Position numbers and translations under genes: made by a program. A DNA stretch of 64,000 nt from a virus. The notes under the pieces were generated by a model. It was not told where the DNA came from. It saw only the letters and a list, made by a program, of their open reading frames with translations, and did not search any database. Each line of letters begins with the position of its first letter. Within the stretch, counting starts at the first letter, position 1. Location: positions 1 to 64,000 of IMG/VR virus record IMGVR_UViG_3300027857_000016, one strand, 5' to 3'. Shown piece by piece: positions 3,074-63,263 of the stretch.

Positions 3074-3167
3074 TCTCTCTCCTACATGATCTATCTTCTC
3101 TAGACGAGCGTATTATTATTCATGGTATGAGTAAAGTCAATGTCCTATTTTATTGAAGAGGTTTTTC

Positions 3168-3854
3168 ATGTATATTTTGGTAATCGATGATGACCCGTTG
3201 AACTGCGAACTCGTCAAATTTCTGTTGTTGAAAGAACGCTACGAAGTCGAAGTAGTGGACAACCCGCGTGGTGCCATTCATCTCATCGAGAAACGTCTTC
3301 CTGACCTCTTGTTGCTGGATATCCGCATGCCAGGCATGGATGGCTTTGCACTGACGGAGCACCTGGAAAAGACCGGGTACCGTATTCCCAGGGTCTATCT
3401 TACGGCTTGCTCAACTGAGGAGGACCGCCTCCGGGGCTACAAACTGGGAGCTGAAGACTATATTTGCAAGCCGTATTCTCCCGCCGAACTCCTGGAACGT
3501 GTCAAGGTCGTGGCACGCCATCAGCGAGGAGTCCGGCCAGCACAGCATCTGCGTGTTGGACCAATAGAACTGATCCCTGAAGAACTGCATCTGCTCATAG
3601 CGGGGCAATCTGGTCCTCTCCCACTCACTCCCACTGAAGCACGTTTGCTTGCTATCCTGATGAGTCATGAAGGGATCGTGGTTCAGCGTGGCGAGTTTAT
3701 TGCCACCATCTGGAATGACTCCGAAGACATGGGAAGCAACATTCTTGATGTGTTTATTAAGCGGTTACGTGGGAAATTGCGTATTCCTGGGAAGATGCTC
3801 CCTAGTATTCTGACGGTGCGTGGGGTAGGATATAAGCTGGTGAATGTGAATTAA
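3168..3854 (+). CDS. OmpR/PhoB-family response regulator (orphan)
   Basis: Receiver ILVIDDD...LLLDIRMPGMDG...LTA...DYICKPYS and winged helix LTPTE...LDVFIKRLRGKL...TVRGVGY. Confidence 0.95.
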   Translation: MYILVIDDDPLNCELVKFLLLKERYEVEVVDNPRGAIHLIEKRLPDLLLLDIRMPGMDGFALTEHLEKTGYRIPRVYLTACSTEEDRLRGYKLGAEDYICKPYSPAELLERVKVVARHQRGVRPAQHLRVGPIELIPEELHLLIAGQSGPLPLTPTEARLLAILMSHEGIVVQRGEFIATIWNDSEDMGSNILDVFIKRLRGKLRIPGKMLPSILTVRGVGYKLVNVN

Positions 3855-3875: not shown

Positions 3876-4328
3876 ATGGTTGATCTGCAACGAAAACGTG
3901 TCACGGCTTCCTTTACCTTTGAAGTGAGAGTAGATGATACCAAGATCCACTCTTCAGGCAATGACGAAGAGGTGAAGCAACTTGACCTGGCACTTCTCCG
4001 CCAGTTCTTGGAGTCTGATCCAGAACGGGTGCGAATACTCCTTGCCGACATGATCTCATTGCAGTTGGGTGGGATGTACGATGATGAGACCAGGAAGTAT
4101 CTCGTCAAAGGCGTACCCGATGGCGATACCTTTATGAAATACCTCTTTTACGATGCTATTGAGCAGCTACCAGAGCCATTTTTGACTGATTGGCGAGAGA
4201 TACGCGATGATCCTGCCATTGACCTTTCCCAATGTGTAGAAGGTATTCTGGCGTGTTTTGAAGTCACGTTGGTGAGTGGAAGCCTGGAGCAGGACTCGAA
4301 CCTGCGACCACCGCACGATGTGAGATGA
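3876..4328 (+). CDS. Hypothetical acidic protein
   Basis: GGAG RBS; follows the response regulator; 3' end overlaps the tRNA-like element in antisense. Confidence 0.65.
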   Translation: MVDLQRKRVTASFTFEVRVDDTKIHSSGNDEEVKQLDLALLRQFLESDPERVRILLADMISLQLGGMYDDETRKYLVKGVPDGDTFMKYLFYDAIEQLPEPFLTDWREIRDDPAIDLSQCVEGILACFEVTLVSGSLEQDSNLRPPHDVR

Positions 4329-4378
4329 GTCGATGACCCAGTGCTCACGGCGGTGCTCTGCCACTGAGCTACCCAGAC
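4277..4378 (-). tRNA. tRNA-like RNA with extended anticodon arm (identity unassignable)
   Basis: Acceptor GTCTGGG/TCCAGGC, U8A9, D-arm GCTC-AGTGGCA-GAGC, T-arm GCAGG-TTCGAGT-CCTGC, variable TGGTC, 3' TTCCA; 33 nt replace the 7-nt anticodon loop. Confidence 0.75.
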
Positions 4379-4647
4379 GTGTTGCTGCTTTCATCCTCAA
4401 TGTCAAACAAGCTCAGTTTCTTCCTCAGGTAATCGAGCGTAGCCTCTTCTTTTGTTCTTCCTTGCCCACGGAATGGACTGATAAATAGGTCAGTGGCAAC
4501 AAATAGTTTCTCCCATTGCCTGAATGTCAGTACCAGTTCTACATGCGTATCCCCGCACCGGAAAAGTATGTGGTCATTCCATTCATCTCGATACTCATCA
4601 TCTACTATTTCGCTCAAATAGCTTTCTCGCTGTTCTGCCTTGTTCAT
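4369..4647 (-). CDS. Hypothetical protein
   Basis: ORF in minus-strand run. Confidence 0.55.
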   Translation of the reverse strand: MNKAEQRESYLSEIVDDEYRDEWNDHILFRCGDTHVELVLTFRQWEKLFVATDLFISPFRGQGRTKEEATLDYLRKKLSLFDIEDESSNTSG

Positions 4648-11312: not shown

Positions 11313-12071
11313 CTATTGATATGACTCACACCACAATTTTGCAGCAGGGATCACCATACCCTTTGACTTCCAGGGTTTACGGGTTACTGATGCTAACGAA
11401 GTGATATCAACTTCCTTGAAGAAATACGGTGTTCTATATCTTTTAGCGTAGCGATGGTACCCGCCAGCATAACACGCTTCTCCATCGCTGTCATACCAGG
11501 ATGACTCTTCTACATATATTCTGTGCTCATCAAAGCGCACTGGCTGTAATGTTTCACCTTCTACCCAATAATACATCTTTCCAAAGTACATAGCGTGCAA
11601 GTACTTCTCCCATTGCAGAGGGCTGTACTTCTTGGTGTTATATTCCAGCGTCAAGGGACACGGTGAAGTCCATAAGAGAGCGATCCCCTTGTTCGTATAG
11701 GCTCGCGTCCTTCTCTCAATGGTATCTAATGATAAAGTGCTCACCTGTACCTCAATGGCAATAGGAATGTTTCTCAGATAAAAGCTAATATCTGGACGGA
11801 CATCACCTAAAGGTCGCTCTAGTTGCAATTTGGTGATATCAGGATGATGCTGTAACGTCTCATAGATGCCTTGCTTTGCCTCTCTGTGCTTTTCACTTTC
11901 CCCTTCACCATAAACACAATTCGACGGAGGGATGTGGGAGAAATGGTGGATCTTTACTCTCCCCTTCTTGACCAATACACCGCTTTTACACATAGGACAG
12001 GTAAACGGACTATCTTCTTTTATTACTTGGGACGCTAGAACGTCACCGCCTTGGTTGCGAGCACTTAACAT
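11313..12071 (-). CDS. CoiA-family PD-(D/E)xK nuclease-like protein
   Basis: FTCPMC...HHFSH...GESEKH...RPDI...AIEVQVS. Confidence 0.85.
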   Translation of the reverse strand: MLSARNQGGDVLASQVIKEDSPFTCPMCKSGVLVKKGRVKIHHFSHIPPSNCVYGEGESEKHREAKQGIYETLQHHPDITKLQLERPLGDVRPDISFYLRNIPIAIEVQVSTLSLDTIERRTRAYTNKGIALLWTSPCPLTLEYNTKKYSPLQWEKYLHAMYFGKMYYWVEGETLQPVRFDEHRIYVEESSWYDSDGEACYAGGYHRYAKRYRTPYFFKEVDITSLASVTRKPWKSKGMVIPAAKLWCESYQ

Positions 12072-12178
12072 AAGGTACTGTCCTTCTACATCAGTATATG
12101 CCACTATGACGACGCCTATCATACATCATTCGCACTGCGAAGAGAACTCGCTATCCCACAGTTACCATCACTGCCTGC

Positions 12179-40994: not shown

Positions 40995-41121
40995 GAGAAT
41001 ATCAGCGTCATAAATTGCCTTTTCAGGCGAATTCATGGTATAATGAGATTGGTTGATTGAGTTGTTGCCCTTGCGGTGATGGAAACACCCAAGGGCGTGA
41101 TAGCAAGGAGTGACCCTTACT

Positions 41122-42237
41122 ATGGATAGCACTATACCAGAAGGTTTTAAACGATGCAACAAATGTGATCTAGTGAAGCCGCTAGATGAGTTTTATACGA
41201 TGAAGAGGCCGAATGGGATAAGGAGTCCAAAGTACATATGTAAAGAGTGTGAGAATGTAGGATCTCAAAGCCGCTTCAAGCAAAAGAAAGTACAAGCAAA
41301 CAAAAAGTGCGCCTATCCACCCTGTGATACTATCATTGTGCCTTCCGCAACTTATTGCTCTGCTCACTTCCGGTTAAACCCTGAAGAGGTTGAGCGACGT
41401 GCTTCTAAATTCCCTCCTAAATCCACCTGCATTTTTCCTGGTTGTGGCAAACTAATCTCTCGCGGAGCATCATATTGTCATTATCACTATAATCGACGTG
41501 AACGATCCCACGTCACTAAATCTAAGATGTCTATGTCTGCTAAGAGACGAGCTAATACTCCAGAAGGCAGGGCAAGAATGTCTCAAGCTGCCAGCCTTGG
41601 AGGGAAAACATGGAAGGGACGGCACCACACACAGGAAACAAGAGATAAGATACGTGGAAAGCGTGCAATGCAAATTCTTTCTCGTGAAAGTCTGGAGAAG
41701 ACGTGGAGTAAAACGCGAGGTCGACCTGGCAATCGTGGCGGTATCCCCCATACAGAGGAAGTAAAGGCGAGGATCTCAACAACCCTACAGTCTAAGCGAG
41801 AGCACTTATCGCGGAAGGGTAGAGAGCGTTATGAACGTGAGACAGAGGAGCAACGGGAAAAACGACTTAATCACTGGATACAGGCTGGACAAGAGAGTAT
41901 AGCTAAGATTTTTAGTGGTACTACCATCGAAATGTTTATTGCTCAGCAACTCGACACTCTAGGTATTGAGTATGAAATGCAAAAGAAGATTGGTTACTAT
42001 ATTGCTGACTTTTGTATTCCTTCTCATATGATAGTGATAGAAGCAATGGGATGTTTCTGGCATGGGTGTGAGCAGTGTGGATATAATGAACCTTGGCATA
42101 TACTCAAGCGAGAGAAGGAGAAAGTGCGAACCGAAAGGATAGTGAAGAAGGGATATTCTGTTGTAGCCCTTTGGGAACACGAGATTCGTCGAGCAATGCA
42201 AGATAGCGGCTATATCTTGCAATTAGGAATTGAATAG
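41122..42237 (+). CDS. Free-standing endonuclease: zinc fingers, NUMOD3, Vsr/DUF559-like nuclease
   Basis: KRCNKC..KPLDEFY; HTQETRDKI and HTEEVKARIS; YIADF...IEAMGCFWH...LWEHE. Confidence 0.85.
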   Translation: MDSTIPEGFKRCNKCDLVKPLDEFYTMKRPNGIRSPKYICKECENVGSQSRFKQKKVQANKKCAYPPCDTIIVPSATYCSAHFRLNPEEVERRASKFPPKSTCIFPGCGKLISRGASYCHYHYNRRERSHVTKSKMSMSAKRRANTPEGRARMSQAASLGGKTWKGRHHTQETRDKIRGKRAMQILSRESLEKTWSKTRGRPGNRGGIPHTEEVKARISTTLQSKREHLSRKGRERYERETEEQREKRLNHWIQAGQESIAKIFSGTTIEMFIAQQLDTLGIEYEMQKKIGYYIADFCIPSHMIVIEAMGCFWHGCEQCGYNEPWHILKREKEKVRTERIVKKGYSVVALWEHEIRRAMQDSGYILQLGIE

Positions 42238-60531: not shown

Positions 60532-62133
60532 ATGCCTATTTCGGCCACCGCTGCACGCGGAATCGTTGATATTATGCTAGAGGCGAATAACGGTGAACAG
60601 TTATTACTTGCCTCTACTCCGGTTATTGCAACAATAACCGGCATCACTGCTCCTAGTGGTAGTACGGGTATGAGATTTCACATACGCATTACCAATTGGA
60701 CGGCTTCTGGGACCGTGACGATTACTGGCACTGGCACACCAGGCAACACGGAGACCTACAACATTGCCGCTCCAACTGCTCAACAGACCCAGAGTGCGCA
60801 GTTAGCAAGCAATGAGTATGTCAGTGTGAATGCCTACACGGCAATCACGAATATTACCACCACTGGACTCACCAACGGCACTATCACTGTGTATGGTATT
60901 TACGCTGGCAAGTTTACCGTGCCTTCCATCATGACCTCCAACCGTGTGGTGAAAGTCTATAGCCCGAACGAGCACAATAGTTTCCTGGAGCGTGACAAGA
61001 AGATCCTTCACCTTGTGAACAACACGACTGTTGATCTCAAGCAAGACGTCTACGCGGATTTGAGCTTGTGGTGGCCCTACATGATGATGGGGGCACCTAC
61101 CATCACGACGTTGCCATCCACACCCACGTCGCTCTTTGCTGCTGCTGCCATCTCGGCAACCCAGTCTCTGACGACACAGCCAACGGCACCGGGCATGAAG
61201 CTCATCTTTACCATTACTGCCTTTACCGTTGCAGGAACATTGACCATTGCCGGGACATCCTATGGTCAAGCAGTGACCGAAACAATTTCCATCACTGCTG
61301 CCGGTACCTACTACTCTAGCAATGTCTATTCTGCGGTGAATGCTTCTGGTATTACCAACGCCACGACGGCTGCGACGATGGCGATAACTGGCGTCTATGG
61401 CTGGCAGTTGGTCTTCTTATCAGGCGGCAACCTCTATAGTGCAGCGATTGAGTGGTACGACGGTGCAGGCTCATGGACGCATCCATTCTCCTTCGCCACT
61501 GAGGGCGATTTCGATATCAAGGTCCAGACGGAGGCGACCCTGACCCTCAAAGGCAAGGCACAAGACAAATTGCCAATTGGCGATAGAACGACGACCCCAC
61601 TTACGGGCGTGAATCGTATCGCCTCCATCGGTGCCAACCTCAACGATGAGCCAATTGTGGGATGGCAAAGTGCTGTGTATCTTGACCCTATTACGGGCAC
61701 GTCGCAAACGACCGCCTTTATACACTGCGAGGAGTTAAAGGTCGCCCTCAAGGTGCCGCAAGAAGATCATTTTACCTTTACGAATAGCCAGAACTACAAC
61801 AGGGCCTATGCCGTCAAGCGGGAATGCACCTGTGAGGCCGTCCTCGATTTCATCGATATGCTGCAGTGGGAACAATTCAGGCAAAACCTCAAGCAGTACC
61901 TCGCCTTCCAGTTTTTGGGTCAGTACATCGGGACCACGGGTGGGTCAGCGCAATTCAAAAGTTGGACTTGGACGCTTCCTGTCCGAAGTGATGGGCAATT
62001 CGATGTGACCTCTGATCCAGCAAAGGGCAACGTGCAAGCCAAGGCGATGTTTAGGACGGAATATGATTCGTCACTGGGGGGGAGCTACAAACTCGTGGTG
62101 GTTACACAACTTCCGCCTACCTACCCCGCGTGA
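60532..62133 (+). CDS. Tail tube protein with two inserted Thr-rich domains
   Basis: Position before the chaperone and tape measure; duplicated GM....IT..T..GT.TI.GT...TET..I inserts. Confidence 0.8.
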   Translation: MPISATAARGIVDIMLEANNGEQLLLASTPVIATITGITAPSGSTGMRFHIRITNWTASGTVTITGTGTPGNTETYNIAAPTAQQTQSAQLASNEYVSVNAYTAITNITTTGLTNGTITVYGIYAGKFTVPSIMTSNRVVKVYSPNEHNSFLERDKKILHLVNNTTVDLKQDVYADLSLWWPYMMMGAPTITTLPSTPTSLFAAAAISATQSLTTQPTAPGMKLIFTITAFTVAGTLTIAGTSYGQAVTETISITAAGTYYSSNVYSAVNASGITNATTAATMAITGVYGWQLVFLSGGNLYSAAIEWYDGAGSWTHPFSFATEGDFDIKVQTEATLTLKGKAQDKLPIGDRTTTPLTGVNRIASIGANLNDEPIVGWQSAVYLDPITGTSQTTAFIHCEELKVALKVPQEDHFTFTNSQNYNRAYAVKRECTCEAVLDFIDMLQWEQFRQNLKQYLAFQFLGQYIGTTGGSAQFKSWTWTLPVRSDGQFDVTSDPAKGNVQAKAMFRTEYDSSLGGSYKLVVVTQLPPTYPA

Positions 62134-63050
62134 TCTGACCATAAAGTAGGAGCATCAGAAGGAGGTAATTTTTTTATGGCATTTCGCTTTTTGTGTGCTA
62201 AGGACATCTTAGCACGGGTTTCAGGCGAGGGTTTTCGCCCTCGACTAGCATTGCCTATGGCACGACAATGCTCTTCAGAAAGTTTCCTCCCTTTGAGCGA
62301 GGTGGACGTTTTTGCCCGTGTCTCATCTGACTTTTTCCGCCCTCTGCTTGCCTTAGCCATATTAGCACGGGCTTCAGCAGAAAAAGGTTTACGCTTTACG
62401 CCTTTCTTTGCTTCAGATATGTTTTTGCATTCTTCCTGTGATTTCACACGTCCTTTATGGGCTTTTGAGATTTTAGCACGAGCTTCTAGTGAGGGCGTCA
62501 CACCTTTCATGCCTGCTCGTATGTTTTCTTTCCATTCGGAAGAAAAAGGTGGGCGTTTTCGACCTTTTGTCGTAGCAGACATCTTAGCTTTGGTTTCATC
62601 CGATAAATGCTTTCCCTTATTCGCTTCGGAAAGTCTTTGCGCTAAATCAGTTGTCGCGTACGCATTTCTCACGCTCGCAGAAATCTTTGCCCTGATCTCT
62701 GGTGTCAATGATTTCATTCCAATTCCACCCGGAGCTTCATTTGTGAGAGGTGCTCCTTGAGAACGGTAGTATTGAATCCAGTATTGCTCACGCTCTTGCC
62801 ATTCATCGACAGAGACTTCATCGATGATATCCAGGAGTGGTTCCAATCCGAGCGATTTGAGATGTTTGACCCAGCGGCCTCTATGTGTCGCTTCTTCGCT
62901 ATTCCTAATATGTACTCTCAATCGGTGCTGGGGATCATTCGACTTGCCCACGTATCGAACTTCGCGTGTGACAGGATCGCTAAGGATGTATATCCAGGTA
63001 GTTTGAGGGAGAGGGTTGTCCAATTGATCATGAGGTGGTACAGTGTCCAC
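62121..63050 (-). CDS. GIY-YIG homing endonuclease with NUMOD3 repeats (antisense to the tail operon)
   Basis: WIYILSDP....RYVGKS..P..RL..H...EREQYWI...LTN..PGG; many KG....S.E.RAK.S repeats; GTG start after AAGGAG. Confidence 0.92.
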   Translation of the reverse strand: MDTVPPHDQLDNPLPQTTWIYILSDPVTREVRYVGKSNDPQHRLRVHIRNSEEATHRGRWVKHLKSLGLEPLLDIIDEVSVDEWQEREQYWIQYYRSQGAPLTNEAPGGIGMKSLTPEIRAKISASVRNAYATTDLAQRLSEANKGKHLSDETKAKMSATTKGRKRPPFSSEWKENIRAGMKGVTPSLEARAKISKAHKGRVKSQEECKNISEAKKGVKRKPFSAEARANMAKASRGRKKSDETRAKTSTSLKGRKLSEEHCRAIGNASRGRKPSPETRAKMSLAHKKRNAIKKLPPSDAPTLWSDHAG

Positions 63051-63263
63051 GATATGTCTCCTTATACAGACGTATCCACGCCAGGGGATGGGTCCAACCA
63101 TCGCTCTGGCACAACATTTTACCTCCTCAGTATACCACATACCAAACATTCGTTCAAGCAATTTCACCGTATAATTTCTTGTTTTTCGTTACTCAAAAAC
63201 AGAAAACAAGAAGGGCGATACTAATTAAGATGATGTTGATAGAAGTGATGAGGAGAGAACAAC

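Follow-up and report, generated by a model that had tools for sequence, protein, structure and literature searches.

A gene in the tailed-phage record IMGVR_UViG_3300027857_000016 has the shape of a tRNA and carries a hairpin where a tRNA has its anticodon loop. Can such a gene still decode, is it restored by splicing, or would its RNA use a tRNA body for something else? We analyzed it within the first 64,000 nucleotides of the record (the window, to which all positions below refer).

A complete tRNA body on the minus strand

The original prediction of a tRNA-like RNA at 4277-4378 was correct in its coordinates; the gene lies on the minus strand, with the 5' end of the RNA at 4378. Using Rfam RF00005 and ARAGORN with the intron option (-i), we delimited a tRNA-shaped gene of 98 nt, from G1 at 4378 to the discriminator U at 4281. 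The Rfam search scored it at 45.1 bits, where the gathering score is 29; the E-value was 2.2e-6 in the window and 6.4e-10 in the 79,998-bp record, and model positions 1-71 were all aligned. The element is thus a member of RF00005, with a cloverleaf above the curated threshold, and it is the sole tRNA-type match of the Rfam search in the ~80-kb record.

The cmscan alignment and the minimum-energy fold agree on an acceptor stem whose 5' strand (4372..4378) pairs with 4282-4288; its 7 bp in the alignment include G1-C72, U2.G71, C3-G70, and G7.U66. In the same alignment, the D arm (4355..4369) has a 4-bp stem and a 7-nt loop carrying the GG pair of the elbow, and the T arm (4289..4305) has a 5-bp stem and a UUCGAGU loop (GCAGG-UUCGAGU-CCUGC). 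The 5' strand of the anticodon stem, CCGC (4350..4353), pairs with GCGG at 4311-4314 in both alignment and fold. U8, A14, and the GG of the D loop are present, G15 pairs with C48, and the variable loop UGGUC has 5 nt, so the elbow and tertiary positions of the tRNA body are all canonical. The canonical acceptor, D, and T arms described from the letters alone were therefore borne out by the full-length alignment, as was one extra base before CCA by the sequence (..GGC-U-UCCA). The UCCA at 4277..4280, 3' of the discriminator, would need one U fewer to be an encoded CCA end; it is probably a trailer, with CCA added once it has been trimmed.

We compared the body with about 100 ordinary metagenomic tRNAs picked by an identical anticodon stem. 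The closest bodies in this set were those of Thr(CGU) genes, identical at 54 of the 68 compared positions, and the Thr(CGU), Thr(UGU), and Thr(GGU) genes of the set share G1-C72 and the discriminator U with the element. This is a weak hint that the body descends from a tRNA-Thr.

A hairpin of the tRNA strand replaces the anticodon loop

The Rfam alignment showed 35 nt at model positions 31-39, where 9 are expected. By cmscan and the minimum-energy fold, this insert lies at 4315..4349 (minus strand) and replaces tRNA positions 31-39. On top of the CCGC/GCGG stem it forms, in order, a C-G pair, a bulged U, a 3-nt bulge AUC on the 3' strand, a 5-bp helix GUGAG/CUCAC, a CAC/U (3x1) internal loop, a 6-bp helix UGGGUC/GACUCA with one G-U pair, and an AUC triloop, and it prolongs the anticodon stem by 12 pairs in the minimum-energy fold. 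The three helices proposed earlier, CCGC/GCGG, GUGAG/CUCAC, and UGGGUC/GACUCA, were all found in the fold; the statement that the insert is fully paired went too far, as 12 of its 35 nt are unpaired.

The whole element folds at -43.7 kcal/mol (z -2.6), a value reached by 1 of 200 shuffled sequences, and the anticodon arm alone gave a z of -2.0, with 8 of 200 shuffles equally good. These values suggest that the fold beats chance only moderately. The complement strand folds at -33.1 kcal/mol, which is 10.6 kcal/mol worse than the minus-strand RNA, and the three G-U pairs of the element are valid on the minus strand only. The minus-strand advantage and the strand-specific G-U pairs point to an RNA-level structure of the tRNA strand, not to a DNA palindrome or a plus-strand terminator. 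The insert occurs once in the 80-kb record, and a repeated mobile hairpin was rejected on this ground.

No contiguous deletion restores a decoding loop

We enumerated all contiguous deletions that leave a 7-nt loop, in three registers of the stem: that of cmscan (with a C-U mismatch at 31-39), one with a C-G pair at 31-39 and a bulged U, and that of ARAGORN. No contiguous deletion in these three registers yielded a 7-nt loop with both U33 and a purine at 37, and every loop that keeps U33 has a pyrimidine at 37. A functional decoder (5-bp stem, 7-nt loop, U33, an anticodon, and a purine at 37) was thus not obtained. Judged by its sequence, the gene is unable to decode, as its anticodon loop cannot be recovered.

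ARAGORN at default settings did not report the element. With the intron option it reported a 'tRNA-Ala(UGC)' after removing 28 nt; the product has G33 and is without position 26, and the intron junction is ambiguous, as CGUG stands on both sides of the 28 nt. The intron search that had been proposed as a check thus recovered the element, while the leftover loop carries G at 33.

Bulges on opposite strands had also been likened to archaeal introns. The bulge-helix-bulge motif is defined by two 3-nt bulges around a 4-bp helix (PMC4090602). The insert resembles it in having two 3-nt unpaired stretches on opposite strands and a short helix stacked on the anticodon stem, and, as in archaeal introns at 37/38, the bulge of the 3' strand adjoins the stem, with that of the 5' strand lying distally. 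The likeness ends at the geometry: there are 5 bp in the helix where the motif has 4, and a U opposes the second, distal bulge, which makes it a 3x1 internal loop. Cuts inside both 3-nt bulges, in the style of the archaeal enzyme, would leave an 8-nt loop. The tRNA-splicing endonuclease EndA/Sen (PF01974), RtcB (PF01139), and RNA ligase (PF09414) were absent from the 80-kb record (CheckV completeness 53%) in searches to which control genomes responded, and the host looks bacterial (below). A protein-spliced bulge-helix-bulge intron of the archaeal or eukaryal kind was rejected because the minimum-energy fold lacks the defining geometry. We consider it very unlikely that a host or phage endonuclease cuts both opposed 3-nt bulges and a ligase rejoins the ends to give a tRNA with an unconventional 8-nt loop; if true, this would be a bacterial cut-and-rejoin route of tRNA splicing, possibly producing a non-triplet decoder.

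Two other classes were also rejected. A group I self-splicing intron needs at least about 200 nt with a P1-P9 core, compared with an insert of 28-35 nt, and Rfam found no intron family. For tmRNA, ARAGORN -m found none, and the pair 3-70 is C3-G70 and not G3-U70.

Phage, host, and the convergent junction

The phage terminase is 41% identical to those of Streptomyces and Thermobifida phages, portal and protease are also encoded, and the G+C content is about 49%. Bacterial-type domains are present in the phage: an OmpR-family response regulator and CoiA-like, MerR-like, and Lar-like domains. The host looks bacterial from these sequences, and an archaeal virus was rejected because of the OmpR-type regulator, the CoiA, Lar-like, and MerR domains, and the actinophage-like terminase. 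An archaeal virus with an ordinary intron is therefore no longer an easy explanation of the element.

The element sits at a convergent junction. On one side, it forms the end of a leftward operon of small ORFs that extends from about 8600 to 4369. The last member of the operon, P0002 (92 aa, 4369..4647, minus strand), has its last three codons and its TAG inside tRNA nt 1-10; the overlap with an upstream stop codon noticed earlier is real, with the TAG at 4369-4371 forming tRNA nt 8-10. The ribosome-binding site of P0002 is weak, and searches of 5.8 billion proteins and of viral contigs found no homologue; on this basis P0002 may not be a real gene. No homologue was found for a minus-strand ORF spanning the element, and a neighbouring ORF of 221 aa has no relatives in viral contigs.

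On the opposite side, the response regulator gene and P0001 run into the element. The OmpR-type response regulator (3153..3854, plus strand; Pfam Response_reg 3.5e-29, Trans_reg_C 3.8e-20) is complete, with receiver and winged helix, and no histidine kinase was seen nearby. Just downstream of it lies the convergent ORF P0001 (150 aa, 3876..4328, plus strand). Over its final 17 codons (..SGSLEQDSNLRPPHDVR) this ORF runs antisense to the 3' half of the tRNA and to the insert's 3' strand, and it stops at a TGA within the insert. No terminator-like site was predicted at the junction on either strand, and a bidirectional terminator was rejected accordingly. We rejected a prophage attachment site, given the presence of both tRNA halves and of phage genes to either side.

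Three nuclease genes were noted in the window, none adjoining the tRNA-like gene: a GIY-YIG/NUMOD3 homing endonuclease (62121-63167, minus strand), an endonuclease with a Lar-like N-terminus (41110-42237, plus strand), and a CoiA-like nuclease (11313-12122, minus strand). The only sequencing run holding the region is a soil metagenome of DNA, with no RNA run listed, and in this run, which is probably the source sample, no variant or joint was seen at the element. Logan unitigs of the source run break at 4269-4298, in the T arm and acceptor 3' strand, with a 30-nt overlap, and the depth in this bin rises from 34 to 56, which suggests that the 30-mer is common to another sequence of the sample, either another tRNA or a variant allele.

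Close relatives keep the 3' half of the element

The region had no match in INPHARED phages by megablast or blastn, and the element itself gave just a 24-nt match to the T arm. The exact insert was not found in IMG/VR viral contigs. A search for the body-plus-gap pattern in IMG/VR, in one genome per prokaryote species, and in JGI metagenome contigs found no homologue of the insert; all matches were to ordinary tRNA genes (for Val, Thr, and Ile, among others) or to interrupted tRNAs unrelated to the element. A single-sequence covariance model run over 100 loci matched the tRNA body only. Four contigs with related terminases (L115-L118) have no tRNA and share neither genes nor synteny with the early region of the record.

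Relatives of the element were found through the antisense tail of P0001. Two proteins, P0003 and P0004, each of 150 aa and 83% and 81% identical to P0001, both keep the 17-codon tail. By this protein-level evidence, two further contigs contain at least the T arm, the variable loop, the 3' strand of the anticodon stem, and 15 nt on the 3' strand of the insert. P0003 and P0004 differ from each other at two residues only, both in codons derived from the insert. The most economical RNA changes behind them are inferred to be A58 to G (U32-A58 becoming U32.G58) and U64 to A at a bulged base, and with both changes the fold keeps its shape at -43.3 kcal/mol. Of the proposed homologue check of the pairing in the insert, this much could be answered: both differences fit the fold, for the 3' strand alone, by inferred codons, and at two sites. 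The differences are compatible with a maintained structure, a statement that rests on these two sites and the inferred codons.

The tail of P0001 is identical to that of P0003, and the first 133 residues of the two proteins differ at 19.5%; the probability of zero changes in 17 is 0.025. The identity extends over the last 45 residues, and 26 of the first 105 residues differ. A recent recombination over the 3' end of the gene and the element, and not selection, would explain the identical tail equally well. The tRNA-antisense tail is absent from P0005 (49% identical), L227 (35%), and 20 further representatives of the family, and L227 has no Rfam match, tRNA included, at E up to 1. The absence of the tail from distant relatives indicates that the element is a recent acquisition of one narrow lineage.

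P0001 belongs to a family of uncharacterised acidic proteins of about 140 aa (22 representatives), in which the C-terminal motif ..ecF.a.fV.. is conserved. In HMMER searches, relatives of P0001 align as far as SGSLEQ (residues 134-139, 4275-4292 on the plus strand), which overlaps the antisense of the acceptor 3' strand, and the counterparts of SGSLEQ in the relatives are ..lvSSQLQE and ..fvSSSYE. The element may thus have joined the native C-terminus of P0001 with an overlap of a few codons.

Other interrupted tRNA genes of phages

In IMG/VR, the pattern scan picked out 114 loci whose D and T arms are separated by 45-70 nt. Several keep an intact anticodon loop with a short insert at 37/38: Thr(UGU) genes with 19 additional nt (L019/L110), and Gly(GCC) genes with a hairpin of 44 or 39 additional nt (L043/L093 and L061). 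An Ile(UAU) gene of this kind, with 24 additional nt, lies on a metagenome contig (L126). These are candidate short introns outside archaea.

Another group of loci forms a recurrent family in which normal anticodon-stem strands enclose an insert of about 40-47 nt (L028, L063, L094, L012, L101, L052, L102, L067, L021, L018, L045, L058, L099, L098, L112, and L114). A motif conserved in these inserts, ..UUAC-N-UUUCGCUUAUAGCA..AAAGUUCCUA.., resembles a pair of hairpins, of which the first has a CUUAUAG loop of 7 nt. The family occurs on unrelated contigs with differing acceptor stems, and so looks like a widespread insert or module.

Comparison with known tRNA-like RNAs

YrlA is a bacterial and phage Y RNA, a tRNA mimic bound by Ro60/Rsr, and the M. 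smegmatis YrlA is an RNase P substrate that acquires CCA (PMC4201824). Like YrlA, the element encodes a non-decoding RNA with a tRNA-like D arm, T arm, and acceptor stem, and both come from actinobacteria and their phages. In contrast, YrlA ends on the Ro-binding stem and its 'acceptor' is an internal stem-loop, whereas the ends of the element form a normal acceptor stem, its extra helix stands at the anticodon position, and the record has no TROVE/Ro60 gene. The element was not classed as a YrlA/Y RNA, since a TROVE domain is absent, the termini form a normal acceptor stem, and Rfam reports tRNA only.

Devoto et al. (2019, PMC6784885) reported short 'enigmatic' introns for the tRNA genes that Lak megaphages carry. 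The element shares with them, and with the cases on viral contigs, a perfect tRNA body and an interruption of the anticodon loop by a few dozen nt, too short to self-splice. There, tRNAscan or ARAGORN recovers an anticodon and isotype after removal, whereas here no canonical loop appears: removal of the insert gives no loop to which an isotype could be assigned. The 3' strand of the insert is kept in two related contigs, as seen at the protein level. The setting also differs, with a single such gene in a siphovirus-like soil phage of about 80 kb as opposed to the tRNA array of a megaphage. The archaeal introns considered above stand apart by their 4-bp helix and unopposed distal bulge, by a product other than an 8-nt loop, and by their endonuclease and ligase.

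The tRNA-like domain of tmRNA is comparable in that a tRNA-derived body is kept for recognition by tRNA enzymes and no codon is read, but tmRNA is without a full D arm and has G3-U70 and an mRNA module, whereas the element has a full D arm, C3-G70, and a hairpin only. Stable tRNA-like RNAs of phages T4 and T5 likewise have a tRNA-derived body that does not read codons. With no anticodon recoverable from its sequence, the element would belong with the anticodon-less tRNA look-alikes.

Weighing the explanations

The reading that we tentatively favour, as less than an even prospect, is a non-decoding tRNA-derived RNA that matures like a tRNA and acts as a protein-binding mimic, as a processing or 3'-end element, or as both. 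It is supported by the full-length match to the tRNA family despite the insert and the canonical elbow, by an insert that lengthens the anticodon stem and a fold biased to the minus strand, by the failure of every contiguous deletion to rebuild a 7-nt loop that combines U33 with a purine at 37, by the position of the element as the only tRNA-like gene of the record, by the contigs of P0003 and P0004, where its 3' half and the insert's 3' strand persist with two inferred changes that preserve the fold, and by the junction without a predicted terminator. Counted against it are the restriction of the element to one lineage, the modest statistics of the hairpin (z -2.0), the possible origin of the tail identity in recombination, the DNA nature of the sole sequencing run, and the absence from the 80-kb record of both Ro60 (TROVE) and a CCA-adding enzyme. 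Some of these points would equally suit a young pseudogene, which we regard as possible and rather less likely: a phage tRNA gene, perhaps a tRNA-Thr, whose anticodon loop was destroyed by a short insertion or template switch that left a functionless hairpin. The element is limited to three close contigs and missing in the distant relatives of the flanking gene and the terminase, both positions at which P0003 and P0004 differ lie in the insert, which could mean relaxed constraint, recombination may account for the identical tail, 28 nt of the insert lie between direct repeats of CGUG, and the significance of the fold is modest. However, the tRNA body, at 45.1 bits, shows no flaw; the hairpin, with its bulges and a G-U pair that works on the RNA strand only, is not a newly formed, perfect palindrome; both known changes preserve the fold; and losing its sole tRNA-like gene would be more economical for a phage than keeping it dead.

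A hairpin mini-intron, from which an RNase III-like or other endonuclease of host or phage and a ligase would restore a working tRNA, seems unlikely to us. Short inserts in phage tRNA genes have been published (PMC6784885) and our scan of viral contigs found many, with Thr(UGU) at L019 and Gly(GCC) at L043 and L061 keeping the anticodon ahead of a hairpin at 37/38, and the two 3-nt bulges on opposite strands follow the arrangement of archaeal pre-tRNAs. Yet no excision of the present insert restores a canonical loop, the 7-nt products being without U33 or with a pyrimidine at 37, while cuts at the bulges leave 8 nt around a central helix of 5 and not 4 bp; the missing EndA, RtcB, and RNA-ligase domains (in a record 53% complete) and the bacterial host also speak against it. 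We give very little weight to the proposal that the functional unit belongs to the plus strand, as a C-terminal extension or stop of P0001, a 3' stem-loop, or a cis-antisense pair of convergent transcripts. P0001 does read 17 codons into the element and ends at a TGA inside the insert, the HMMER alignments of its family reach residues 134-139 over the acceptor 3' strand, and no terminator was predicted on either strand; but the tail (..DSNLRP..) is what antisense read-through of a T arm classically gives, and none of the 20 other family representatives has it, the plus strand folds 10.6 kcal/mol worse, and no U-tract follows the hairpin on that strand.

A possible role for the non-decoding RNA

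For the favoured non-decoding, tRNA-derived RNA, the following course can be proposed. The element would be transcribed last in the leftward early operon. A cut by RNase P at G4378 would release the RNA and sever the upstream P0002 message 9 nt before its stop, and the RNA would be trimmed and given CCA in the fashion of a tRNA. The product would persist as a stable L-shaped RNA unable to enter the decoding centre, and it would likely occupy a protein that recognises the tRNA body, such as a tRNA-directed defence nuclease of the host or a tRNA-handling enzyme. In cis, the element may serve for processing and 3'-end formation at the terminator-less convergent junction; the role as an RNase P/Z processing signal suggested by the original prediction is compatible with the sequence.

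If the element is a pseudogene, it is an ordinary one. If the RNA is made and stable, it would be an independent, small example of a barely described group, that of RNAs with a perfect tRNA body that do not decode, and its source would be a mid-sized soil phage without a tRNA array. Such RNAs are candidate decoys of tRNA-directed host defences or candidate tRNA-type punctuation of phage transcripts.
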